Shown: positions 1-64,000, counted from the first letter of the stretch. The stretch: DNA of 64,000 bases from an uncultured Clostridia bacterium (GCA_944381185.1 CALWKE010000002.1:130050-194049), one strand, 5' to 3'. Made by a program: numbers and translations. The notes: a model not told the origin generated them from the sequence alone.

Positions 1-264
1 CCGGGTGGTTCGTATAACTCAAACACCATAAAAGCGGCAACAGACCTTGGCTATAAAACAATAATGTGGACAAGAGATACCATTGATTGGCGTGATCATG
101 ACACGAATTTAATTTATAATAGAGCAGTTTCAAATATGCAGGGTGGCGACTTAATTTTGATGCATCCAACAAAAAATACAGTTGAGGCACTTGAAATGAT
201 AATTGAATATGCTAAAAGTAAAAATTTTAACCTTACGACAGTAAGTAAAACTCTTGGACTATAA
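1..264 (+). CDS. polysaccharide deacetylase (NodB family), C-terminal fragment; 5-prime end lies outside the window
   Basis: Frame 1 is open from base 1 (PGGSYNSNTIKAATDLGYKTIMWTRDTIDWRD...), so ORF 64..264 extends to the window edge. The tail resembles the C-terminus of the paralog at 30112..30876 (DWxx, LILMHP vs IILCHN). Confidence 0.7.
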   Translation, partial: PGGSYNSNTIKAATDLGYKTIMWTRDTIDWRDHDTNLIYNRAVSNMQGGDLILMHPTKNTVEALEMIIEYAKSKNFNLTTVSKTLGL

Positions 265-322
265 AAGTATCACAACTATCTAAAAATGTTAAAAAATTAT
301 ATAAAAGTTTGAAAAATATGCA

Positions 323-349
323 AAATCCGTTTTTAATACGGATTTTTTT
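323..349 (+). terminator. intrinsic terminator
   Basis: 8-bp stem AAATCCGT/ACGGATTT with a 7-nt loop, followed by a T-run. Confidence 0.75.
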
Positions 350-390
350 GTTATATAATAGTTGTGTAAAAATATTGTTTGGAGAAGAAT

Positions 391-1656
391 ATGGCACTCA
401 ACACATTTTCTAATGGATTAAGACTTGTTTGCGTTAACCGCCCTGAAAAAAAAGTTGCATGCGTTGTGCTTCATATTGCAGGTGGCACACAATCTGAAAA
501 AAACTATCAAAGCGGTATTAGTGATTACTTAACAAAAATTATGCTTATGGGAACTAAAAAGCATTCAACAAAAGAGGCTCTTATGAATTATGCAAAATCA
601 AAGGGTATAATTTTAACTCCCCATAATTCAAAAGAAAGCATAACAATAAGTGCTATTTGCCCAAGAGAAAATGTTGAAGATGCTATTGCACTTTTATCAG
701 AAATTGCGTTTGACACAAACTTTTCTTTAGAGAGTGGCGAAAAGGTTAGAAGGCAACTTTTGTCACAAGTTTCAATGCTTGCTGAAAATCCACAGTATGT
801 TATGGACAGGCTTATTAACTCAACTCTTTATTTCAGAACGGGGCTTGCAAATCCGAAGTCAGGAACAAATATAACAGTTTCAAGGTTCAGAGCACTTGAT
901 GCTAAAGACTATCTTGAAAAAGTTTTCACACCAAGAAACACAATTATTTCAGTTGTTGGCGATGTTGTTCAAGATAATATTTATGATTTGGTAAAAGTTT
1001 ATTTCTTTGACCGCATGAAAGCTTCTGAAACAGAATATAAAAAACTTAAATATGTTTCTGCTATTGAAGATTTTGTTGGCTCGGCAAAGGGTAGAGTTAA
1101 AAGGCTCAATCAAACCCGAATTTCAGTGGTTTTTCCAACAGTTTCTTTTAAAGATAAAGAAAAATATATCATTGAAATAATTAAACCAATACTAATCAAA
1201 TACATAAAATTATCGTTATCAAATCAGAACTATTATTTTGACACAAAGATTAAAACAAAATATTATGCAAATAATGGAAATATACTCTTTGAACTTATTG
1301 TTGACTATGATTATGCTGAAGAGCACTTATACAATTTTATCACAGCTCTTAAAAATGATGTTAAAGACCGAACAATAACAAGTGAAGAATTTGAAACTGA
1401 AAAAAGAGTTTTTATCACAAACTTTATAAATACTTATGACAATGTGCTTGAAAATGCACTTATGTCTGCAAAACAAGTGGCACTCACAAAACAAACATTT
1501 AGTGAAAATTCTGAAAGATTAAAAATGGAAGTTTTAACCAATCGTGATGCCAACAAACTTATTGATAAAATTTTTGATTTTAATAAGATGCTTATTGTAT
1601 ACTTGGGGCATGATATTGATGTTGATTATGATGATTTGCTTGAACAGGTAAAATAG
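391..1656 (+). CDS. M16 (insulinase/pitrilysin) family peptidase-like protein, predicted non-catalytic
   Basis: About 421 aa with M16 length and N-terminal pattern. The position of the HxxEH zinc motif reads SDYLTK. GGAG at 381 favours ATG 391 over the TTG at 379. Confidence 0.65.
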   Translation: MALNTFSNGLRLVCVNRPEKKVACVVLHIAGGTQSEKNYQSGISDYLTKIMLMGTKKHSTKEALMNYAKSKGIILTPHNSKESITISAICPRENVEDAIALLSEIAFDTNFSLESGEKVRRQLLSQVSMLAENPQYVMDRLINSTLYFRTGLANPKSGTNITVSRFRALDAKDYLEKVFTPRNTIISVVGDVVQDNIYDLVKVYFFDRMKASETEYKKLKYVSAIEDFVGSAKGRVKRLNQTRISVVFPTVSFKDKEKYIIEIIKPILIKYIKLSLSNQNYYFDTKIKTKYYANNGNILFELIVDYDYAEEHLYNFITALKNDVKDRTITSEEFETEKRVFITNFINTYDNVLENALMSAKQVALTKQTFSENSERLKMEVLTNRDANKLIDKIFDFNKMLIVYLGHDIDVDYDDLLEQVK

Positions 1657-1665
1657 GGGTGAATT

Positions 1666-4600
1666 TTGGAAACTAAAACAACTAGTGTGCAAATGACAAG
1701 AAAAAAAATTATAGGACTTATTGGTCTTATAATTTTTGCTATGATTTTTATTTTTGCATGTCTATCAAGTGTTCTTCCTTTTGGCAGAATGTTAGTTGGC
1801 GTTTTTGGTGTGATGGTCTATCCATTTTCACTGATTTTTGCCTTCTTGTCTTTGGCTGCCTTTTTAGGTTTTTCATATCGCAGAAATGCAAAGGCAACAA
1901 CATATTTTGTTATTGCAATTTTAAGTGTGATACTAGTTATTCATTCAATTTCGACCTTTAAGGAACTTGATGCAGTTGTAACCACTCAAACACTTAAAAA
2001 TTATTTAAATTATGCGTTCACATCTTCAACAGTTTTAGGTGCAGTTGGTTCAACAATTTGTGGGCTCATTTCAATGCTTTTAGGTGGAATGGGAACAATT
2101 GTCGTGTTTGTTATTTTAACAACTCTTTTTGTAGGGCTTTTTATTGATTGGCAACTTTATGGCAAATATGAGGCACCACATATAAAGAAATTAAAATCTA
2201 AAAAGCTTCGAGAAAAAGTTTATAATAGTGATAAAAATGTTTCAACAAATGGAATGCCTGCTTATTCATTTTCAAACGAAGCAGTTGATGAAACTTCGGT
2301 TGATGCAACAGAATATGAAATGAACACACAAACTGAAAGTTATAGTGGGGCAAAATATACAGATGACGATGTTGTTGACGAAATAACTGATGATTATATT
2401 TCAGAAAATAATTCAAATTCAACAACCAGCAATTATTTTGCAGGTTCGTTTAGTTCATATCAAAGTGCAAATTCAACTAACTTTGATGAACCTCAAGAAA
2501 AGAACGAATTTTCTAATAATATTTATGAAGAAACAAGATATCCAGATGTTTATACCCCTGAACTTGACGAACATAGGCGTCAGTTTATGAATGCAACATT
2601 CGGAAAAACTGAAGAAAATAATGAAAATTTAGAGCAAGATTTTCAAACTGAAAATCAAACAAGTTCATTTAATCCATCAATTGATGATGACTCTACAAAT
2701 TTTGTTAATATGCCGGGTGAGTCTTTTGAAAGCATAAATTTGGGTGAGAATCAAAATCAAACCGCTGAAAATATTTCTAGTTATGAAAGCAAAGAAAATT
2801 CTTCAATAAATTCAAATTTAGATGATGAGATTTCAAAAATTTTGAGTTCAAACGAAGAAGATGATGAACTTGAAGTTAAAAATGATGTTTTTGAAAATCA
2901 ACCAAATCAAACATCAAAAGACAATGTAGTTCAGAGTCAAATCAAAAATGAAAATTATAATAACATAACTAAAAATTATAGTGATACAACTTCTTATTCA
3001 GGCGGTTATGACAATTTTGATGATTCAAGAAATAAAGGTTTTGCAGATAGTGGGTTTAAAACTAATAACTTGCAAGATAATTTTTCTAATCAAAAAGAAG
3101 AACAAAGAGTTAATAATTTTAATCAAATGCCAAGGCAAAACGGGTTTAATCAAAATGGTTATAGTGGATTTGCATCAGGGTTTAACAGTCAGCAAAACAC
3201 ACCATTTCAATCGCCTTATAATAATGGATTTAATCAAACAAATAATATTAATTCAGGGTTTGCACAAAATTTAAATTCTAATAGCAGTCAAAATTCAAAT
3301 GTTAACACAAACAAACAAAGTGTTGTTGTTCCTTCAAAACCACCTAAAAATAATTATGGCATGAATATTGGAATGACAGGGTTAAGATATAATCCGCCAC
3401 CATTAAGTTTGCTTCGAACACCAAAAGCGGATACGGGGGACTACACCGAAGAACAGAATAGAAAATCTGCAAAACTTGAAAATGTTCTTGCAGCATTCAA
3501 TATTCCAGCAAAGGTAAAAAATATCGTTCGTGGACCAAAGATAACAAGATATGAACTTGCACTTCCACTGGGCGTTTCTGTTAAAAAAGTGCCAATGTTT
3601 GAAGATGATATTGCAGCTGCACTTGCTGCAAAAACAATTGTTATAAAAGCCCCAATTCCGGGCAGTCAGTTTGTTGGCATTGAACTTGAAAATGACACAT
3701 TTACAAGCGTTTATGAACGAGAACTTTTAGAGTCTGATGCTTTTCAAAATTTCAAAGACCCACTTCCAATTGCAATCGGCAAAGATATTTCAGGCGAGAT
3801 TGTTGTTAAATCACTTGCAAAAATGGTGCATTTGCTTATTGCAGGTTCAACTGGTTCAGGTAAATCAGTGTTTATTCACAACATAGTTTTAAGTTTAATT
3901 TATAAATCAAGTCCAGATGATTTAAGGCTTATAATGATTGACCCTAAAAAAGTTGAATTTAACAGATATAATGGGCTTCCACACCTTTTGACTCCTGAAG
4001 TTGTTATGGGTTCTGATAAGGCAATAAACGCACTCAAGTGGTCAGTTAAAGAAATGGAAAGGCGTTATGACCTTATGTCTAAAGCAGGTTACAATAACAT
4101 AGAGCCATACAACAAAAGTGAACTTGTTAAAGCAGGTCAATTTGAAAAATTTCCTTATATTGTTATTATTGTTGACGAACTTGCCGAAATTATGATGGTT
4201 AATAAAAAAGAAGTTGAAGCATGCATTCAAAGGCTCACACAACTTGCTCGTGCCTGCGGTATGCATTTGGTGCTTGCAACTCAAAGACCTTCAGTTGATA
4301 TAATTTCAGGTGTTATTAAAAACAATATTCCATCAAGAATTGCATTTAGTTTGCAATCAGGTATCGACTCAAAAACCATTTTAAATGCAGTTGGTGCTGA
4401 AAAATTGCTTGGTCAAGGTGATATGATTTTTGCTCCAACAGGCACATCTTCAACACCAAGACTTCAAGCAGCATACGCAAGTGATGAAGAGATTAAGGCA
4501 GTTATTGATTATGACATTAAATATAACAAGGCAAATTATGATGAAACCGTTAACGAGATAATAAATTCTGAACAAACATCTGCTGATGATGCATCAGGTT

Positions 4601-36744: not shown

Positions 36745-38955
36745 TTACACATTAAAGTTTTTTGAATAGAATAATGAAACAAAAATAATGTTTGAAAAGA
36801 TTGGTGCAAAACTAATAATTCCCGGAATAATCCAAAGCAAATGATTATAGTAACTTTGTGTGAAACTATAGAACCCAAGTTGAAGATTAACGCAGTAGGT
36901 AATTAAAAGTAGTTGCACCGTGACGATAACGGAAATTAAAAACATTATTCTTGGGGCATATTTTGCGGGCACTTTTTTATAAGGATTAATTAGGTATAAA
37001 ATTAGGTAATAAAGCGCATAGACTGCAAATGGAATAAAAGCGTATAAAAAGTAAGAAATTGAGAAGCCCTGTGTGTTACGAAAAGCAGTGTTATTTAAAA
37101 TGATATAAACAGCTGAAAGAACAAAGATATAACCAAACAACAATATTAAACTTTTTATTAAGTTAAGTTTGTTTATAAGCATATAATTTCGCTCAACGAA
37201 TGTGTCATTATCTCGTTTGTATTCACGAATTTTGATGCCTTCTTTTTCAAACTCTTGCTTTAATGTTTCAATATCTTTAACATTTTCTTGCGATTGATTT
37301 TCTTGCTCATCATCTTGATTTAAACTAATTTTAGAGTATTTTGATAGGTCTGAAAGTTTCTTTTTGTAACTTTCACCTGTGTAACTTGGTCTAAATGGCT
37401 CATAAGTTTTTTCTTGATACTCGGTGTTTTCAGTTTTATAATTCGATGCGGTTTCAGAGATTATGCTGTCAAAATCTGAATATGAATAGGTGTTATTTTC
37501 GTTATTATCAACATAATTGGTTTCATCGCTATCATAACTATCTTGTTCTTGAATACTTTGGTTTGCAATAGTATCAACAGAAGAAACATCATCATTTTCG
37601 TCTTCATCTTCAAGTTCATCATCATTATGTTCTTGAATTCGACTAAAGTAATAATCATGTTCGTCATGTTGAGGTTTTTCTACTTTTGCTTCGTAATAAT
37701 CGTTAGAAGTTTCTGCCTCTTTTTCTTCAACTTGTTCATTACTGGGAAGATAGTCGACATCTTCATCACTTTTAAAGAATGATGAATTATTGTCGTAATC
37801 AAGTTCATCTAATTCACTCAAAAAGTCATCACTCGCTGTTTTTATTTGAAGAGTGTCATTTGAAACTTGGTTTGTTTGTGAAATTTCTGAATATTCTTCT
37901 TGTTCAGCAGATTCTTCGACAACAGAAGAAGGTTCTTCAACTTCTGCGGTTTCACCATCGCTTGAAAAATTATTTAAATTTTCAATAGCTGTTGAAAATT
38001 CATCAATTTTATCATCTACTTCTTCGCTATAATATAAGTCCATATCAAGAAGATTTTGTTGAACAACATTTTGATTTTGGTTTAAATGATTGATGTAAGA
38101 ATTTTTATCACCAACATAGGTGTTAATTTCTTCATCATCCTGACTTCGAAGTTTTGCTAAAATATTGCTTTCTTGAGCAGTTTGATTGATTGAGTTATAG
38201 GTTGGGGAACTATCTGTTTCATCTTCTTGTGTTTCCTCACTTGCATTACTAGAAGAAACATAAACCATTTCATCTTCTTCATCATCATCAAAATTTTCGT
38301 CTGTCACATTATCTTCATTGTCATTAGTAATATAAGAATTATCATCTTCAGTTTCTGTTTCTTCTAAATTTTCATCATTTTCAGTGTCTGCATAATTGTT
38401 ATAATCATTTTCAGACTCTTCAGTTTCTTCAGTTTCTTCATCAGACAAGGTGGTTATTGAATCATTAGAAGTTTCACTTTCATTACCATTATTTAATGTG
38501 ACATTTTCATCAATTTCATTTTCAGCATTTAACTCGTCTTCGTCTTTTGGTTCATATGTGAATTTTTTGCCTTCAATAATCCTGTCATAATCATCTTTTT
38601 TAACAAGGCGGTATTCATCATAATTGAAATTACTTAAAAGATTATCAATAATAAATTTTGATTTAGACCATTCTTCTTGCTTTTTTTGAAGGGTTTCACG
38701 ACCCTTGTCAGTAAGTTTATAATAATGTCTTCTGCCACCAATATCACTATCAAGCCAGTATGAAGAAATGAGCTCTTGATTTTCAAGACGCTTCAAACAA
38801 CTATAAAGTGTTGGTTGTTTTAATTCATAAGTTCCATTGCTTCGAGATTCAACTTCTTTAATAATATCAAGACCATATTTATCGCCGTCAACCATTGTTT
38901 TTAAAATGATTGTGTCAATATTACCTCGAATTAAATCACTATCAATATTTGGCAT
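36745..38955 (-). CDS. PadR-family wHTH fused to a roughly 500-aa acidic low-complexity linker and a C-terminal multi-pass membrane domain
   Basis: N-terminus IRGNIDTIILKTMVDGDKYGLDIIKEV...LKQPTLYSCLKRLE...GGRRHYYKLTDKG is PadR-like. The D/E/N/S/T-rich middle has no recognisable domain. The last 170 aa or so contain 4-5 hydrophobic helices. Confidence 0.75.
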   Translation of the reverse strand: MPNIDSDLIRGNIDTIILKTMVDGDKYGLDIIKEVESRSNGTYELKQPTLYSCLKRLENQELISSYWLDSDIGGRRHYYKLTDKGRETLQKKQEEWSKSKFIIDNLLSNFNYDEYRLVKKDDYDRIIEGKKFTYEPKDEDELNAENEIDENVTLNNGNESETSNDSITTLSDEETEETEESENDYNNYADTENDENLEETETEDDNSYITNDNEDNVTDENFDDDEEDEMVYVSSSNASEETQEDETDSSPTYNSINQTAQESNILAKLRSQDDEEINTYVGDKNSYINHLNQNQNVVQQNLLDMDLYYSEEVDDKIDEFSTAIENLNNFSSDGETAEVEEPSSVVEESAEQEEYSEISQTNQVSNDTLQIKTASDDFLSELDELDYDNNSSFFKSDEDVDYLPSNEQVEEKEAETSNDYYEAKVEKPQHDEHDYYFSRIQEHNDDELEDEDENDDVSSVDTIANQSIQEQDSYDSDETNYVDNNENNTYSYSDFDSIISETASNYKTENTEYQEKTYEPFRPSYTGESYKKKLSDLSKYSKISLNQDDEQENQSQENVKDIETLKQEFEKEGIKIREYKRDNDTFVERNYMLINKLNLIKSLILLFGYIFVLSAVYIILNNTAFRNTQGFSISYFLYAFIPFAVYALYYLILYLINPYKKVPAKYAPRIMFLISVIVTVQLLLITYCVNLQLGFYSFTQSYYNHLLWIIPGIISFAPIFSNIIFVSLFYSKNFNV

Positions 38956-41762: not shown

Positions 41763-41906
41763 CAAAATATTTTGTTAAAAAATAAAAAGTGAGATTGAGT
41801 TAGTGGGGAATAATAATCAAGAATGCTGAAATTTACAGATTTACAGCTTATTTTTGCTTCGTTTGTCATTAAGTTTTTCAACATAGATGTTAACAACCTT
41901 TTTGTA

Positions 41907-41940
41907 ATCTATTCGCAAAACACAGCTTTTGCGAATAGAT
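41907..41940. repeat. perfect 14-6-14 inverted repeat, candidate tyrosine-recombinase core site
   Basis: ATCTATTCGCAAAA CACAGC TTTTGCGAATAGAT. No flanking T-run, so not a terminator. TAGGGGT occurs twice immediately downstream (41940, 41954). Confidence 0.6.
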
Positions 41941-41984
41941 AGGGGTATTTGAGTAGGGGTTTTGCACATTTATTAACATTACAA

Positions 41985-42021
41985 ATTTAATTATAAATTA
42001 AGACTGGATTTAATTATAAAT
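41985..42021 (+). repeat. 14-nt direct repeat ATTTAATTATAAAT x2 (period 23 nt)
   Basis: Exact copies at 41985..41998 and 42008..42021. Confidence 0.6.
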
Positions 42022-42580
42022 ATGATGTGAATTAAAATTTTCAAATTTTTAATTTATGCTATATCATTTTTTATTGTTTGACTTTATGTATTATGAATTG
42101 TATAGCATTTGATAATTTTCATATTTAGGTGTGCTATGTTTGTCATAGTATATAATTTGGTGTTGATATTGGTTTATTTTTTGTGACGCTCTGTGAGAAC
42201 TTACATATAATCTTTTAATTCAATTTCTAGCAGATTTGTCAAGATTTTCAGTGTAGTTTTATGTGTTGCACTGTGAGAAATCGTTTGGTGAAATGAATTT
42301 TGTAGTCTATCAAATTGCAATCAAAAGATCTTAACTTGTTTGGTAATTTTTAATCGTAAGCAACTTGTCAAGTCATTATATTTATCTAATCATTAAAATT
42401 ATTATTAAAGTTATGTAATATAATTTTAAATTAATGAAATGATATTTGTGTAAAATTTATCACTCCCCCAATTTTTATAGTTATAGTTGTGTGACATAGC
42501 ACTAAACCATATTAATATTATCATTATTTTAAAAATTTTTGTAAAAGTGCCCAAAAATATTATTTATTATTTTTTTGTTG

Positions 42581-42589
42581 TGTTATAAT
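42581..42589 (+). promoter_or_regulatory. extended -10 promoter element for 42619..43158
   Basis: TGtTATAAT about 30 nt upstream of the start codon. Confidence 0.45.
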
Positions 42590-42618
42590 TTACTTGTAAT
42601 ATTGTTATGAGGTGTTTT

Positions 42619-43158
42619 ATGAATATTTTTAATTTTTTAGGTGCTAATGGTTTGATGATAGGATTTTTTGTTTTTGATATTATTTTAATATTATGTGCCA
42701 TTGGAATTTCTATTTGGTTTTATGTTAAGTATTTAAAACAGAATAAAAATAAAATTCAAAAAGAGCAAAATAAAAATATTGAAAAAATTGATGATGATAC
42801 TTATATTATTGAAACAAATGAAGATTTTGATGAAGAGCAATCAGATGTTGTTCAAGAACAAAAAACAAATAGAGTTGAACATTTTGTTTCTCAAATAGCA
42901 GAAATTAATGAACCATCAACTGAAGAACTTAAAGCTAAAACGGTTGTAAAAAATAAAGAAGTTGAAATGCCAAAGAAAAAGACAGTTAAAAAAGAAGAGA
43001 TAGAAAATTTTGTGGTTGTTGATGGTATTAAGAAAAATAAAACTAATGCAGAAAAAACAAAATCTGTCAATCATGGTGCAAATGCATTTAAAAATTCAAC
43101 AAACTTTTTAGATAATATTAAAAAAGAACAAGTTCAAACTGATAAAAACAAAAAATAA
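42619..43158 (+). CDS. small Lys/Glu-rich membrane-anchored protein, hypothetical
   Basis: One N-terminal TM helix (GLMIGFFVFDIILILCAIGISIWFYV) followed by a charged tail. GAGGTG SD precedes the second ATG (42619). Confidence 0.55.
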   Translation: MNIFNFLGANGLMIGFFVFDIILILCAIGISIWFYVKYLKQNKNKIQKEQNKNIEKIDDDTYIIETNEDFDEEQSDVVQEQKTNRVEHFVSQIAEINEPSTEELKAKTVVKNKEVEMPKKKTVKKEEIENFVVVDGIKKNKTNAEKTKSVNHGANAFKNSTNFLDNIKKEQVQTDKNKK

Positions 43159-43206: not shown

Positions 43207-43995
43207 TTATAGATATTTAATATTAATTTGGTTAACAAATTTTGTCATATCAAGAGAATTGTTTTTATACTTAATTTTATATTCTCTAGTTAAAAATTCC
43301 CTCTTAACTTTAAATTTCAAATATTTAGTTTTATTGAGTTGAACAAGAAGTTCAAAGCAAGATGATTTTTCAAGATTTTTTATTGAAACTTTAACGATAG
43401 TTTTACAATTTTTTATAAAGTAATCCATAAATTTTTGAATTAAAGAGTCGACTTCTGTGTCAGTTACCAAAATGACAATGCTATTTCTGGCAAAGGTGCA
43501 AGTTGGAAGTTCATCTTCATTAAAAACTCTATTTTTTAACATTTTTAAGCAAGTTTTTGCTGATTTTAATGAATGTTTACTTGGCATCATAGATTTAATA
43601 AATGATGAAAATTCTGTTAATGATGACTGATTTTTGTCGGTATCAATTTGTTCGTTAAATTCATTACAAAAATCTGGAATATTATGCAAGTGTTTAAGTT
43701 TAAAATTAATTTTACGTCCATAATATTTAAGTTTATTTTCAAGTGTTTTTATTTCTTTATTAATTTTTTTTATTTTTTCAAGTTCGCCTAAAACATTCTT
43801 GTTTTGTTTTTTTAGACTCGACATTTTTGAACAAAGTTTATTTGAAGTTGCTCTTAAATTTTCATATTCAAGTTGAAATTCTTTTCTTTTATTTTCTAAA
43901 TTAATAATAGAGTTTAAATTTACATTTAAACCCATTAGTTTATAAATTTTACTAAATTCCTCATGATATTTTATTAATTGGTCGAGTGCTATCAT
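43207..43995 (-). CDS. seryl-tRNA-synthetase-derived protein lacking the catalytic core (pseudoenzyme or decaying paralog)
   Basis: 262 aa. Residues 1-105 align with the SerRS N-terminal coiled-coil arm up to LHNIPD. The C-terminal end echoes the SerRS C-terminus. The motif 2/3 core is absent. AAGGAG SD present. Confidence 0.5.
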   Translation of the reverse strand: MIALDQLIKYHEEFSKIYKLMGLNVNLNSIINLENKRKEFQLEYENLRATSNKLCSKMSSLKKQNKNVLGELEKIKKINKEIKTLENKLKYYGRKINFKLKHLHNIPDFCNEFNEQIDTDKNQSSLTEFSSFIKSMMPSKHSLKSAKTCLKMLKNRVFNEDELPTCTFARNSIVILVTDTEVDSLIQKFMDYFIKNCKTIVKVSIKNLEKSSCFELLVQLNKTKYLKFKVKREFLTREYKIKYKNNSLDMTKFVNQINIKYL

Positions 43996-44057
43996 AGCTA
44001 TCTCCTTTTTATATTAAATCTAGTTTATTATAATAAAATCTATTTGTCAAACAATAT

Positions 44058-44071
44058 AACTATTCGCAAAA
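44058..44071 (+). repeat. third copy of the recombinase-site arm (AACTATTCGCAAAA)
   Basis: 13 of 14 identical to the arms at 41907..41940. It abuts or overlaps the -35 of the recombinase promoter. Confidence 0.55.
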
Positions 44072-44074
44072 TAT

Positions 44075-44103
44075 TTGACTTGAATTATAAATTATCTTAA
44101 AAT
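44075..44103 (+). promoter_or_regulatory. recombinase promoter, probable leaderless mRNA
   Basis: TTGACT, 17 nt, TAAAAT, 6 nt, ATG 44110. No SD. Confidence 0.6.
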
Positions 44104-44109
44104 TAAAAT

Positions 44110-45156
44110 ATGAAAAATCAAACTTATTATAATGAACAAAAAATAAAAAATACCGAAAAGTTAAGAAATGTTTTGAAAGACTTGCCAGATTTTGCTCTTG
44201 ATTTTTTTACTGGAATTGAAAATAACACAAGCAGTTTAACAAGACTTAATTATGCCTATGACTTAAGGCTATTTTTTAATTGGGCTGTGAATGAAACAAA
44301 TCTTTTTCACGGAAAAAGTGTTTTTGATCTTGAAGTTAAGGATTTGGAAAAGTTTCACACAACACATTTTGAAAGATATATGAGTTATCTTACCTCTTAC
44401 ACCGACGAAAATGGCGATATAATAACAAATGGCGAGCGTGGAAAGGCTCGAAAAATTGCGTCTGTTCGTTCATTTTTTAAATATTTTTTTAAGCGTGAAA
44501 TGATTTCTGTTGATGTTGCAAGCAAAATTGATATGCCAAAACTTCATGACAAGCCAATAATCAGACTTGAAGATGATGAAGTTTCAAAGTTTTTAAACAC
44601 AGTTGATTCAGGTTATGGACTATCAGGACATGAAAAAGGTTTTCATAAGCACACAAAAATTCGTGATGTGGCAATAATGACACTTCTGCTTGGCACAGGG
44701 CTTCGTGTGTCGGAATGCGTTGGATTAAACATAACTGATATTGACTTTAAAACAAATGCTATTAGTGTTACTAGAAAAGGTGGAAATCAAGTTATTTTAT
44801 ATTTTTCAGATGAAGTCAAAGTTGCACTTTTTGATTGGATTGAAGAGCGTTCAAAAAATCCCGAACTTATTAACGAACCAGCACTTTTTACTTCACTTCA
44901 AAATAAGCGAATTTCGACAAGGGCTGTTGAAAAACTTGTTAAAAAATATGCGGGAATTGTTACACCATTAAAGCATATTACCCCACACAAACTTCGAAGC
45001 ACTTATGGCACAAGGCTTTATCATGCCACACAAGATATTTATGTTGTTGCCGATGTTTTGGGTCATAAAGATGTAAATACAACAAAAAAGCACTATGCTG
45101 CAATTTCAGAAGATATTCGAAAGTCTGCATCAAAAGCGGTTTCGTTAAGAAATTAA
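44110..45156 (+). CDS. tyrosine recombinase, XerS-like (Xer/integrase family)
   Basis: Catalytic R (TGLRVSE), HxxR (PHKLRST), H (LGHKD), Y (KKHYA). VTRKGG and the N-terminal layout resemble streptococcal XerS as remembered. 348 aa. Confidence 0.85.
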   Translation: MKNQTYYNEQKIKNTEKLRNVLKDLPDFALDFFTGIENNTSSLTRLNYAYDLRLFFNWAVNETNLFHGKSVFDLEVKDLEKFHTTHFERYMSYLTSYTDENGDIITNGERGKARKIASVRSFFKYFFKREMISVDVASKIDMPKLHDKPIIRLEDDEVSKFLNTVDSGYGLSGHEKGFHKHTKIRDVAIMTLLLGTGLRVSECVGLNITDIDFKTNAISVTRKGGNQVILYFSDEVKVALFDWIEERSKNPELINEPALFTSLQNKRISTRAVEKLVKKYAGIVTPLKHITPHKLRSTYGTRLYHATQDIYVVADVLGHKDVNTTKKHYAAISEDIRKSASKAVSLRN

Positions 45157-45161
45157 AAAAA

Positions 45162-45188
45162 GACAAGTTAATTTAACTTGCCTTTTTT
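45162..45188. terminator. bidirectional terminator overlapping the GNAT 3-prime end
   Basis: Stem CAAGTTAA/TTAACTTG flanked by A- and T-runs. Confidence 0.65.
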
Positions 45189-45659
45189 ATTGTTATTGAA
45201 TTTCTCAAGTTTAAAGTGCCCATCCTCATAAATTAGTTCATTATTTTTGTGTTTATATCCAAATTTTTTGTAAAAAGGAATTGCAAGCATAGATGCAGGA
45301 ATTTCAATTCGGTTTGCCCTTATATAATATTCATCATTTTCAAGAGTATTCATTATTAGAGTTCCAATTCCCTGATGCTGATAGTCAGGGTCAACAAAAA
45401 TATTAAAAAGTGAGCTTTCTGTTTTGCTATCACAATAAGGTCCAATTGCTCCACAACCAATGATTTTATCATTATTTTTAACTACATAAAAATGAGTGAA
45501 TTCAGCTCTTTTTTTTATACCTTCATAATTTAAACTTTCAATAACATATTTAATTGATATATCAGGATAATAAGGAGGAAAACTAATTTTAACTGTTTTT
45601 TCAATTAATTTTTGAACTGAAGAAATGTCATTTTCTTTTAATAATTCAATATTGAACAT
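45168..45659 (-). CDS. GNAT family N-acetyltransferase
   Basis: Motif A VDPDYQHQGIGTLIM. 163 aa. Confidence 0.85.
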   Translation of the reverse strand: MFNIELLKENDISSVQKLIEKTVKISFPPYYPDISIKYVIESLNYEGIKKRAEFTHFYVVKNNDKIIGCGAIGPYCDSKTESSLFNIFVDPDYQHQGIGTLIMNTLENDEYYIRANRIEIPASMLAIPFYKKFGYKHKNNELIYEDGHFKLEKFNNNKKGKLN

Positions 45660-60541: not shown

Positions 60542-61279
60542 ATGTTAGAACTTAAAGATATCTGTTTTTCGGTTAAGGAAAACGGCAAAATAAAACAAAT
60601 TCTTAAAAATATTAATCTTACAATTGAAGATGATATGTTTTTTGTTATAACTGGACCAAATGGTTCTGGCAAGTCAACTCTCGCAAAAATTATTATGGGA
60701 ATAAACAAGCCAACTTCAGGCAAAATTATTTTTAATGACAAAGATATAACTCACCTTTCAATAACTGAAAGGGCTAAACTTGGAATAAGTTTTGCCTTTC
60801 AACAACCAGTTAAATTTAAAGGTATAACTGTTAAAGATATGATTTCACTTGCAACAAACAAAGAAGCAACTGTTGCCGATGCTTGTAAATTTTTATCAGA
60901 TGTTGGGCTCTGTGCAAGAGATTATATCGACCGTGATATTGATGATTCACTTTCGGGAGGTGAACTTAAGCGTATTGAAATTGCAACCATTATTGCAAGA
61001 GCAAGCAAACTCACCATTTTTGATGAGCCAGAGGCTGGGATTGACCTTTGGAGTTTTAATAGTTTGATTAAAACTTTTAAAAATTTAAAAAACAAATATA
61101 AGTGTGGATTTATAATAATTTCACACCAAGAACGAATTTTAGATATTGCTGACAAGATTATAATTTTGTCAAATGGTGAAGTGTCAACAGTTGGCAAAAA
61201 AGACGAAGTTATTTCAAAACTTTCAGAAGTTTATTCAACTTGCTTGAAGTTAGAGGAGGCGCAAAATGGAACTAACTAA
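60542..61279 (+). CDS. sufC: Fe-S cluster assembly ATPase SufC
   Basis: Walker A GPNGSGKST, signature LSGGELKR, Walker B IFDEPEAG. AGGAGG SD supports ATG 60542. Confidence 0.85.
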   Translation: MLELKDICFSVKENGKIKQILKNINLTIEDDMFFVITGPNGSGKSTLAKIIMGINKPTSGKIIFNDKDITHLSITERAKLGISFAFQQPVKFKGITVKDMISLATNKEATVADACKFLSDVGLCARDYIDRDIDDSLSGGELKRIEIATIIARASKLTIFDEPEAGIDLWSFNSLIKTFKNLKNKYKCGFIIISHQERILDIADKIIILSNGEVSTVGKKDEVISKLSEVYSTCLKLEEAQNGTN

Positions 61280-62384: not shown

Positions 62385-63083
62385 TTAATTTTTAAAATAA
62401 GATGCAAGTTTTGTGAAAATGCCACCACCTTTTAATTGTTTTATGGTTTTTTTCATATTTTTTGATTCAAATATAGTTTTTCCACTAACAATGATATTTA
62501 CACCCATTTTTCTTAAAATTTTAGAATTTTTAATGGTGACTCCACCATCAATTTCAATGAATACCTTTTTGTCCATTTCTCTTATTTCTGCAATCTTTTC
62601 TGCCATTCCCGGTATGAATTTTTGACCGTAAGCACCCGGCTTTACACCCATAACTAAAACAACATCAACAAGCCCTGTTTCAAGCAAATCTTTAATTTTG
62701 AGTGGTGAAGTTCTTGGGCTGATTGCAACGCCTGAAACCACATTATTTTCTTTGATTTTTTTTAAAGTTTCAGTGATATTTTTGCAGGCTTCAAAGTGAA
62801 CTGAAATAATATCGGCTCCCGCTTTAATATATTTTTCAACAACCTCGTCTGGATTTTCAACCATAAGGTGAACATCAAGAAGAAGGCTTGTTTTATCACG
62901 AAGTTTATCAACAAACTTGTGGTCAAAAGTTTTATTTTTAACGAATTTTCCGTCCATAACATCAACATGAACAAAGTTTGCTCCTGCCCTTTCAATGTTT
63001 TCAAGAGCAGTTGTTAAAACTTCATCATTATTATAGTCAATGGCAATTATTGATGGTGAAACTCTAATTAATTTTGTTGGCAT
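62385..63083 (-). CDS. rpe: ribulose-phosphate 3-epimerase
   Basis: SPSIIAIDY, HVDVMDG, DVHLMV, MGVKPGAYGQKF, DGGV. Confidence 0.93.
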   Translation of the reverse strand: MPTKLIRVSPSIIAIDYNNDEVLTTALENIERAGANFVHVDVMDGKFVKNKTFDHKFVDKLRDKTSLLLDVHLMVENPDEVVEKYIKAGADIISVHFEACKNITETLKKIKENNVVSGVAISPRTSPLKIKDLLETGLVDVVLVMGVKPGAYGQKFIPGMAEKIAEIREMDKKVFIEIDGGVTIKNSKILRKMGVNIIVSGKTIFESKNMKKTIKQLKGGGIFTKLASYFKN

Positions 63084-63084
63084 A

Positions 63085-64000
63085 TTATTTCTCCTTTAAT
63101 TTAGATCTTCGAAGTTGTCCACAAGCTCCTGAAATATCACTTCCAAGAGTTCGCCTTGTGGTTGCTGAAAGTCCTTGTTTTTTTAATTCTTGCCAAAACT
63201 CTGCTTGTTTTTGTTTTGTTGGTGGTTTTAGCACTGGATTTGAATTATTTGGTGTGCTGTTTAGTGGAATTAGGTTAAAGTGACAAGAAATGCCTTTTGT
63301 TAGTTCTTTAAGTCTAACGGCATCTTCTGGATTTGTGTTTATGTCAAGTTCAATATATTCAAACACAATTCTGCGTTTTGTTTTTTCAAAATAATATTTA
63401 ATTGCAAAAAATAACTCTTTAAGTGGATAGGCTTGATTTACTCTCATAATTTTTTTTCTAATGTCGTCATTTGATGCGTGAAGTGAAATTGTGAGAGTTA
63501 TTCCAAGGTCTTCATCGGCAAGCCTTTTAATTTTGTCAGCAAGTCCGCAAGTTGAAAGTGATATATTTCGCTGTGAAATATTTAGCCCTTCTTTGCATGA
63601 AATAAGTTGTATAAATTTGACAACATTGTCATAGTTATCAAGTGGTTCGCCACAACCCATTAAAACAATATTTGTGATTTTTCTATCTGCTTTTGTTCCA
63701 CCAATGTGGTGGTTCACAGACAAAACTTCTCCCAGCATTTCGCCTGCTGTTAAGTTTCGAACAAGCCCGTCAATGCCCGTTGCACAAAATGCACAACCCA
63801 TTCTGCAACCAACTTGTGTTGAAATACATATTGTGTTGCCATATTTGTATTGCATCAAAACACCTTCAACAATGTTGCCGTCACCAAGAGCAAAAAGATA
63901 TTTTCTTGTTCCATCTTTGCTTATTAGTTCTTCTTGAATTTTTACAGGTTGGTCTTCGTAATGCTCTTTTAGCAAATTTCGAAGGTCTTGCGGAATATTT
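63085..64000 (-). CDS. rlmN: 23S rRNA/tRNA (adenine-C2)-methyltransferase RlmN, N-terminus outside the window
   Basis: Radical SAM CRMGCAFCATG and C-terminal ...GACGQL. The frame stays open upstream of the TTG at 63975 to the window edge (NIPQDLRNLLKEHY). Confidence 0.9.
   Translation of the reverse strand, partial: NIPQDLRNLLKEHYEDQPVKIQEELISKDGTRKYLFALGDGNIVEGVLMQYKYGNTICISTQVGCRMGCAFCATGIDGLVRNLTAGEMLGEVLSVNHHIGGTKADRKITNIVLMGCGEPLDNYDNVVKFIQLISCKEGLNISQRNISLSTCGLADKIKRLADEDLGITLTISLHASNDDIRKKIMRVNQAYPLKELFFAIKYYFEKTKRRIVFEYIELDINTNPEDAVRLKELTKGISCHFNLIPLNSTPNNSNPVLKPPTKQKQAEFWQELKKQGLSATTRRTLGSDISGACGQLRRSKLKEK

Follow-up and report, generated by a model that had tools for sequence, protein, structure and literature searches.

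Reviews of single-recombinase Xer systems cover XerS in Streptococcaceae, XerH in Campylobacterota, XerA in Archaea and the Legionellales. Here we describe a locus which appears to belong with them, found in a 64,000-nucleotide stretch of DNA from an uncultured Clostridia bacterium (GCA_944381185.1, CALWKE010000002.1:130050-194049; hereafter the window, with positions counted from its first letter). At 41907-41940 the window carries a perfect 34-bp inverted repeat of two 14-bp arms around a 6-bp centre, and 2.2 kb downstream lies the gene of a tyrosine recombinase resembling XerS. An earlier note, made from the sequence alone, had proposed that this palindrome may be the core site of a single XerS-like recombinase; its conservation, its linkage to the gene, its position near the replication terminus, a prophage junction and copies in viruses and plasmids lead us to the same view, and the palindrome very probably serves a single-recombinase Xer system, related to XerS/difSL, as its dif-type core site.

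The XerS/difSL system of Streptococcus and Lactococcus (Le Bourgeois et al. 2007, PMC1914069; Nolivos et al. 2010, PMC2965235) shares with this locus a single recombinase of ~350 aa, a site linked to its gene and a location at the terminus, and the arms are similar (TTCGCAAAA here, TTTCCGAAAA in the left arm of difSL). The arrangement differs, however, in that difSL, directly in front of xerS, is 31 bp long and has a longer centre between unequal, imperfect arms, whereas the site here is 34 bp long with equal and perfect arms, the full site being 2.2 kb upstream and only a half-site standing beside the gene. Distant members of the recombinase family, in which the full site is 35–300 bp upstream, come nearer to the difSL arrangement.

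XerH/difH of Helicobacter and Campylobacter (PMC3325230; structures 5JK0 and 5JJV) likewise employs a single recombinase, of ~355 aa, and a site near its gene with a 6-bp centre and arms ending in GAAAA beside the centre, as here. The sequence similarity to XerH is weak, however (phmmer E = 1.5e-8, tenth among the PDB hits and weaker than XerD or XerA), and the arms of difH are unequal while those of the window are identical. In Cre/loxP (13-8-13) and Flp/FRT, which are phage or plasmid systems needing no cell-division control, one recombinase acts on two identical arms and direction comes from the asymmetric centre only, again as here; their sequences are unrelated, the likeness being one of working mode and not of membership. 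A full-text literature search returned no paper with the site motif and none on a XerS-like or XerH-like system in Clostridia; the papers containing both arm sequences were only primer tables and a parasite read, irrelevant to this locus.

The palindrome and the recombinase of the window

41907..41940, no strand: putative full 14-6-14 recombination site (dif-like); arms 41907-41920 and 41927-41940, non-palindromic centre CACAGC at 41921-41926
44110..45156, plus strand: XerS-like tyrosine recombinase, 348 aa; last plus-strand gene before the orientation switch

Read directly, 41907-41940 is ATCTATTCGCAAAA CACAGC TTTTGCGAATAGAT, and a repeat search returned the same arms of 14 nt, 100% complementary and separated by 6 nt. 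Base composition leads one to expect ~0.0017 perfect repeats with 14-nt arms and a 6-nt spacer per window, and first-order Markov simulations yielded none (0/60). The remaining perfect inverted repeats in the window, which has a GC content of ~30%, are terminator hairpins flanked by A/T. The palindrome was not called by a terminator scan and is followed by a T-run on neither strand; folded as single-stranded DNA it reaches -12.8 kcal/mol (z = -6.3), and Rfam searches at gathering and E-value thresholds gave nothing relevant at the palindrome. The tract around it (41766-42606) contains no open reading frame (ORF) of at least 60 aa. Within the window the arm sequence matches without mismatch at 41907 (plus) and 41927 (minus) and with one mismatch at 44058 (plus, AACTATTCGCAAAA), and weaker matches are at chance level (22 observed against 20.6 expected at up to three mismatches). 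The earlier note's picture of a perfect 14-6-14 repeat in a gene-free tract, a poor terminator with a second copy of its arm at 44058, agrees with these results, as does its statement that the window has a single recombinase, at 44110-45156. A scan of the window with a single Bacillus-type dif query sequence found no such site.

An ORF survey identified 44110-45156 as the only tyrosine recombinase gene of the window. The best NCBIfam family of its product is XerS (NF003462, 193.7 bits, residues 11-344 against positions 3-356 of the 360 in the model), followed by the XerA, XerC and XerD models, which match over most of their length, while Pfam recognises Phage_integrase and an N-terminal SAM-like domain. 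The R-K-H-R-H-Y catalytic set of XerS-type enzymes of ~356 aa is present in this 348-aa protein: R199, K223, H293, R296, H319 and Y329 are invariant in an alignment of 16 homologues and align with the catalytic regions of E. coli XerD. The resemblance to XerS that had been noted earlier holds in that XerS is the best-matching family over the full length, but not as far as the curated XerS cut-off (267 bits for the equivalog), which the protein misses; we therefore regard it as an Xer-group enzyme closest to XerS and not as a XerS orthologue.

Conservation of the site upstream of the gene

Relatives of the window, which are metagenome-assembled genomes (MAGs) labelled as uncultured “Clostridia bacterium”, were sampled as 80 genomic loci encoding recombinases of 52–86% identity, plus six places for a 96% relative. 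With a regular-expression scan, 43 of 81 loci proved to have a full 14-6-14 site upstream of the gene, exactly one each, and a relaxed scan added ~12 slightly degenerate sites, so that the site is kept upstream of the gene in ~55 of 80 recombinase-carrying loci; those without it mostly have short upstream flanks. The distance from site to gene runs from 63 bp to 5.7 kb in the genome loci and is 35 bp in one metagenome stretch found through its site. In some clades the full site is directly upstream of the gene (e.g. L023, L054, L071, L073, L076 and L079), and in the wider group of the window it is 1–4.6 kb away. Chromosomal synteny is kept across relatives of 52–96% identity, in the order PadR, YgjP, then the site, the recombinase, ProRS and AlaRS.

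A set of 106 arms, drawn from genomes of 29–54% GC, has the consensus A-W-C-T-A-T-T-C-G-Y-A-A-A-A, with positions T6, C8, G9 and A12-14 invariant or nearly so; the centre is variable, GACAAC, GACAGC, GACAAG and CACAGC being commonest. The closest relative, with a 96% identical recombinase, reads ATTTATTCGCAAAA CACAGC TTTTGCGAATAAAT, position 3 being changed on both arms and the centre unchanged. Pair counting detected both-side changes at 7 of the 14 arm positions, with cells and score above all shuffles, and position 10:25 carries C opposite A in 17 of 43 distinct sites. As this mid-stem C/A mismatch is common, and a protein accepting C or T would tolerate it, selection acts on the sequence of each arm and not on a hairpin.

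Metagenome contigs were also searched from the site outwards, with CTATTCGCAAAA-N6-TTTTGCGAATAG, which gave 120 stretches with one copy each. With four matches from viral collections included, a recombinase homologue was present in 39 of 124 such stretches, and the site was upstream of the gene in all but one of these. Over this sample the site does not show up as a dispersed repeat of the kind the earlier note had considered: one full copy occurs in the 64-kb window and one in each of ~180 related loci or metagenome stretches of 1–14 kb. In four termite-gut contigs (L161, L172, L176 and L195), which have no recombinase gene within 4–5 kb of the site, an extra arm with a reverse-complemented centre (CAACTATTCGCAAAAGTTGT) lies ~20 bp to the right of the full site, and may be a recombination scar or a second binding site.

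Conservation extends a short way on both sides of the palindrome.

41888..41906, no strand: clade-specific left flank TGTTAACAACCTTTTTGTA, holding the palindrome GTTAAC; kept in L001, L003, L004, L006, L007, L011 and L205
41941..41977, no strand: conserved right flank AGGGGTATTTGAGTAGGGGTTTTGCACATTTATTAAC, a G-tract and then a TTAACA motif

In the conserved form the left flank is also written TTGTTAACAAC and the right flank GGGGTTTT..TTAACA, or TTTTGCACA..TTAACA after the G-tract; GGGGTTTTT(G/A)ACA motifs resembling the latter are present in other clades. Intergenic DNA beyond the left flank is unalignable among the seven loci listed. Against the closest relative (L205) an island of ~107 bp around the site is 88% identical, and the other intergenic DNA there is unalignable.

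A switch of skew and gene orientation next to the site

44709..45505, no strand: plateau of cumulative G-C, the inferred replication terminus; maximum at 44847, orientation switch at 45157-45168

The skew changes from +0.146 left of the site to -0.056 right of the recombinase gene. Long ORFs up to and including that gene are on the plus strand in 25 of 31 cases, and the next 12 are all on the minus strand. The site is 2.9–3.2 kb from this combined switch, that is from the skew peak at 44847 and the orientation flip at 45157, which bears out the idea in the earlier note that it might sit where the GC skew changes. The same pattern recurs in the relatives: among protein-derived loci with flanks of 2.5 kb or more on both sides, 28 of 31 are positive on the left and negative on the right and none is of the origin type, and site-first stretches with long flanks show the terminus pattern in 24 of 32 cases and the origin pattern in none. 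Even among the long-flank site-first stretches that have no recombinase gene, 11 of 18 are of the terminus type, and this type spans genomes from 29% to 54% GC.

Microviridae carry a mimic of the site

A BLAST search with the consensus 34-mer against annotated phages matched the 4.6–5.2-kb genomes of Microviridae from the faeces of rodents and yaks. At least eight of these viruses have the match close to the replication-initiator gene, in non-coding DNA, where it consists of one well-kept arm, a centre of the host type (GACAGC, GACAAC or GACACC) and a degenerate second arm, as in AACTATTCGCAAAA GACACC TTTTATGAATAGTG and AACTATTCGCAAAA GACAGC TTGTGCGAAAAGTA. The dif motifs which enterogokushoviruses use to integrate through the host XerCD show the same pattern (PMC7062461). 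In bajarodmic virus 400 (L213:382-400) the 19 nt beside the site are identical to the left flank TGTTAACAACCTTTTTGTA of the window; as precise Xer recombination would not carry the flank along, this points to functional mimicry or captured host DNA.

One such virus was found integrated at the site, in a 117.8-kb contig of a MAG labelled Christensenella (L060, CASDOR010000027.1). The gene order there is capsid protein F, pilot protein, replication initiator, a 51-aa ribbon-helix-helix protein, the site, a host ORF, SerRS and the recombinase. The site is at 3161-3194, three bases after the ribbon-helix-helix gene, with the prophage side covering 1-3194 and the host side made up of the ORF, a full-length SerRS and the recombinase gene. 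From the host ORF onwards two other loci (L033 and L051) are collinear with L060, and to the left of the site they have the host genes PadR and YgjP. Since the microvirus stands where the relatives of L060 have host genes, the comparison indicates, if indirectly, that the site recombines in vivo, as do the attP-like mimics in free microviruses; an integration junction, which the earlier note had suggested looking for in long-read or metagenomic data, is thus present in a relative, where a microvirus prophage abuts the site.

The 51-aa ribbon-helix-helix gene (CopG/Arc-like) ends 3–25 nt before the phage site in both the free (L213:221-376) and the integrated form (L060:3002-3157), and its product may be a directionality or Xer-activating factor.

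These viruses resemble the dif-carrying gokushoviruses of Enterobacteria, which belong to the integrative mobile elements exploiting Xer recombination (IMEX; Kirchberger and Ochman 2020, PMC7062461), in that they have no integrase, carry a non-coding dif mimic with one good and one degenerate arm, and form prophages beside the host site. They differ in the host enzyme, which is XerCD in Enterobacteria and a single XerS-like enzyme of Clostridia here, and in the small ribbon-helix-helix gene that here follows or precedes the phage site. For Firmicutes, the portions of PMC9239249 drawn on here report microvirus prophages only for Erysipelatoclostridium and Mammaliicoccus and do not state the integration mechanism.

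Site and recombinase on plasmids

Copies of the site were also found on plasmids and plasmid-like replicons, with and without a recombinase gene. Three IMG/VR stretches (L201, L203 and L204) represent the same element, whose Rep3 initiator and ParA/ParB-like genes lie 3.8–7 kb from the site; the stretches contain no recombinase gene. The first of them, L201:2386-9875, comes from an 89-kb sequence filed as viral (UViG_3300006139_000011) and has Rep3, ParA and a ParB-like protein beside the site; from its gene content it looks like a plasmid or phage-plasmid dependent on the host enzyme. Butyrivibrio fibrisolvens pNP243 carries an intergenic AACTATTCGCAAAA CGCAGC TTTAACGAAAAGTT. In L201 and pNP243 the site thus lies near rep/par with no recombinase gene nearby, like cer, psi and pdif. 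Both cer and psi need ~200 bp of accessory sequence and ArgR/PepA or ArcA, and nothing comparable was identified here.

Other plasmids encode both partners. B. hungatei pNP144 has a homologue of 39% identity with ATTATTGCGTTAAA CATATC TTTAGCGCAATAAT upstream, and B. proteoclasticus pCY360 one of 33% identity with AGTAGTTCGCTAAA TGTTGTA TTTAGCGAACTACT upstream, 1.5 kb from a replication gene, each homologue thereby having its own 14-6/7-14 palindrome. Lactococcus plasmids carry a near-identical 14-6-14 site, AACTATTCGCAAAA TACTAT TTTTCCGAATAGTT, 1.9 kb from a gene which the Prokaryotic Genome Annotation Pipeline (PGAP) names xerS, and the protein encoded there is 28% identical to the recombinase of the window (E = 2e-31). 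From these plasmid pairings and the chromosomal ones, the recombinase and a 14-6-14 palindrome therefore form a recurring module of chromosomes and secondary replicons, whose arms grade into those of difSL (left arm TTTCCGAAAA).

In L. cremoris pUC073A (L212, CP155774.1) the site is at 60988-61021 and the xerS copy at 62928-63998. The symmetric 14-6-14 site of such large dairy Lactococcus plasmids resembles the Clostridial site far more than it does chromosomal difSL.

A half-site between divergent promoters

44058..44071, plus strand: isolated half-site AACTATTCGCAAAA, with a 12-nt core at 44060-44071; between two divergent -35 boxes
44075..44103, plus strand: predicted recombinase promoter, TTGACT, 17 nt, TAAAAT
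44022..44050, minus strand: predicted divergent promoter of the SerRS-derived gene, TTGACA, 17 nt, TAAACT; -35 box 7–9 nt from the half-site
42607..43158, plus strand: small membrane protein, 183 aa; fast-evolving, syntenic in the clade
43207..43995, minus strand: SerRS-derived protein, 262 aa; Pfam Seryl_tRNA_N only, N-terminal coiled coil; between the site and the recombinase gene

The copy of the arm at 44058 is a half-site, since the place of a right arm (44078-44091) matches at only 4 of 14 positions. Its core CTATTCGCAAAA is found 50–60 nt upstream of the ATG in all close relatives (14/14), and in the 80 loci half-sites with at most one mismatch number ~34 within 130 bp of the start codon, against ~17 elsewhere in ~0.9 Mb. 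The TTGTCAA motif of the divergent promoter is kept in relatives. On the side of the recombinase only 6 nt separate the -10 box from the ATG and a Shine-Dalgarno sequence is missing, hence the mRNA is probably leaderless; TATAAT-N6-ATG recurs in many relatives, and other clades have a normal GGAGG leader. The position of the half-site suggests that it is probably an autoregulatory site, retained when the full site moved away from the gene. A regulatory link between site and promoter is suspected for difSL too, the discoverers of XerS having speculated on autoregulation via the promoter-embedded difSL (PMC1914069). A reading of the half-site as a scar of Xer integration was rejected, as the order of full site, interval and a good left arm next to a degenerate right one fits neither orientation of integration, and the interval holds an ancestral serS in outgroups.

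Between the full site and the half-site, close relatives show the same order and orientation of the membrane-protein gene and the 262-aa gene wherever these are retained, L004 being without the latter. In the outgroups L014 (4543-5826) and L033 (4597-5880) a full-length SerRS of 427 aa occupies the position of the 262-aa protein, the first 108 residues of which are 34% identical to the SerRS of L014. That outgroups hold a full-length serS there marks the interval as ancestral chromosome rather than a cassette. The window itself has no full serS, and the truncated SerRS-like ORF is intact but fast-evolving (30–43% identity) in ~12 relatives.

The 660 bp from 41941 to 42606 are gene-free, have the lowest GC of the window (22–24%) and contain loose CTGTGAGAA repeats. 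Alignment with relatives is confined to ~107 bp around the site and ~75 bp in front of the membrane-protein gene, and outside those parts the tract is unalignable even with the relative whose recombinase is 96% identical. A conserved RNA or ORF in the tract was considered and rejected, the alignable parts being no more than the site's flanks and the promoter in front of the membrane-protein gene.

Alternative explanations

Several observations weigh against the palindrome being a dif-type site. The XerS score of the recombinase falls short of the curated cut-off, as given above, and its predicted structure, which rested on a shallow alignment and had a mean predicted local distance difference test score (pLDDT) of 59.7, was of too low a quality for a fold search and was set aside. 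The site lies 2.9–3.2 kb to the left of the switch and not exactly on it. No recombinase gene accompanies the site in 85 of the 124 site-first stretches; many of these are short, but in about ten both flanks exceed 4 kb, and the linkage of site and gene is therefore not universal. That scan, moreover, required exact 12-nt arms and so favours perfect palindromes, and as the loci are phylogenetically related their counts are not independent events. In L060 the capsid F gene and the left prophage junction extend outside the examined DNA. Finally, the single-copy state covers the 64-kb window and loci of ~13 kb, which leaves room for an XerCD/dif pair elsewhere in the genome.

The last point leads to an alternative in which the gene and the palindrome are a self-contained module, either a domesticated element with its attB/attP or a resolution system of a plasmid or chromid, and chromosome dimers are left to XerCD/dif elsewhere. 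Modules of this kind do occur beside replication genes on plasmids and chromids, the recombinase is under the XerS equivalog cut-off, a Bacillus-type dif is predicted in most XerCD-bearing Firmicutes including Clostridia (PMC3025954), and our evidence is limited to 64 kb of the genome. We nevertheless consider it unlikely, given that gene and site keep a conserved chromosomal synteny in relatives of 52–96% identity, with a terminus-type skew switch in almost all informative loci, that no mobile-element genes flank them in the window, and that no Bacillus-type dif was found near the terminus of the window with the single query sequence. Phages which exploit host Xer target the chromosomal dif, and it is here that a microvirus integrated.

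Two further explanations are far less probable. The earlier note had offered, as its own alternative, that a 2.2-kb cassette of the membrane-protein and SerRS-like genes lies between the site at 41907 and its copy at 44058; in such a reading the recombinase would invert or excise it. Two arm copies indeed flank two genes beside the recombinase gene, in an interval whose GC (0.23–0.24) is the minimum of the window, but the cassette does not survive the comparison with relatives. With no second arm (4/14) the copy at 44058 cannot hold the recombinase dimer needed for strand exchange, and the centres are unlike, an argument that the earlier note had already raised against recombination between the copies and which we share. 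Close relatives retaining the genes show one constant order and orientation, no inverted or empty form was seen among them, and L004 has merely lost the SerRS-like gene; outgroups have the full-length housekeeping serS in the interval, and in many relatives nothing separates the full site from the gene, which follows it directly. A phase-variation invertase switch was rejected as well, there being only one full site and a constant orientation in close relatives that retain the genes. It would be just as surprising if the palindrome were an element without a role in recombination, be it the operator of a transcription factor or a hairpin terminator or attenuator. The divergent intergenic location, the stable hairpin (z = -6.3) and the conserved flanks would suit such an element; on the other hand, the palindrome lacks a T-run and is upstream, not downstream, of both flanking genes, Rfam has no match for it, and the centre of the stem is mismatched in 17 of 43 variants while single bases stay fixed. 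An operator or hairpin also sits poorly with a single copy per locus at skew switches, with a prophage junction at the site and with copies in the non-coding DNA of microviruses. The PadR-like neighbour, as an operator-binding candidate, was rejected, its linkage to the site being weaker than that of the recombinase (12 against 39 loci in the site-first sample).

The PadR-domain protein of the window (36745-38955, minus strand) is 736 aa long: its PadR DNA-binding domain, at the N-terminus, is followed by a very long, acidic middle part of low complexity and, at the C-terminus, by a multi-pass membrane region. Like YgjP, RNase H and LexA, it stays in synteny with the site and the recombinase in distant relatives.

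Proposed mechanism and significance

In a dif-type role, one monomer of the 348-aa recombinase would bind each of the identical 14-bp arms, and the two sites of a chromosome dimer would pair at the division septum. Cleavage by Tyr329 would fall where the arms border the 6-bp centre, and the dimer would be resolved by strand exchange in two rounds, via a Holliday junction. As the arms are identical, direction would rest on the centre alone, the non-palindromic CACAGC orienting the site so that the outcome is deletion (resolution) and not inversion. The lone arm at 44058 would bind one monomer and thus provide feedback on the recombinase gene and on the divergent SerRS-like gene. Microviridae would integrate through their mimic site by the same reaction, and plasmids or chromids would carry the site or the whole module for multimer resolution. 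For the window itself we infer binding, the cleavage positions, FtsK dependence, dimer resolution and autoregulation.

More broadly, we lean towards the view that an undescribed single-recombinase system related to XerS serves many Clostridia of the gut and rumen (MAGs under the labels Clostridia, Christensenella, Lachnospiraceae and Oscillospiraceae and, through its plasmids, the cultured Butyrivibrio). It would have perfectly symmetric loxP-like arms and an autoregulatory half-site in the promoter of a probably leaderless mRNA, and its site would be exploited by integrase-less Microviridae for lysogeny of Gram-positive hosts and by plasmids for multimer resolution. If this is true, the viral copy of the site, once with a host-specific flank, would be a simple sequence handle by which abundant gut microviruses could be assigned to Clostridial hosts, and the copies and the prophage would supply a mechanism for Microviridae lysogeny in Clostridia. 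The 34-mer and its enzyme could also serve for marker excision in Clostridia that are hard to manipulate, and the site would mark the terminus in MAG assemblies. A natural dif with identical arms bears directly on what sets the order of strand exchange for a lone Xer enzyme when the arms offer no asymmetry, and the promoter half-site offers a testable case for the autoregulation idea raised for difSL. The finding would extend single-recombinase Xer systems to a large group of uncultured and cultured gut and rumen anaerobes.

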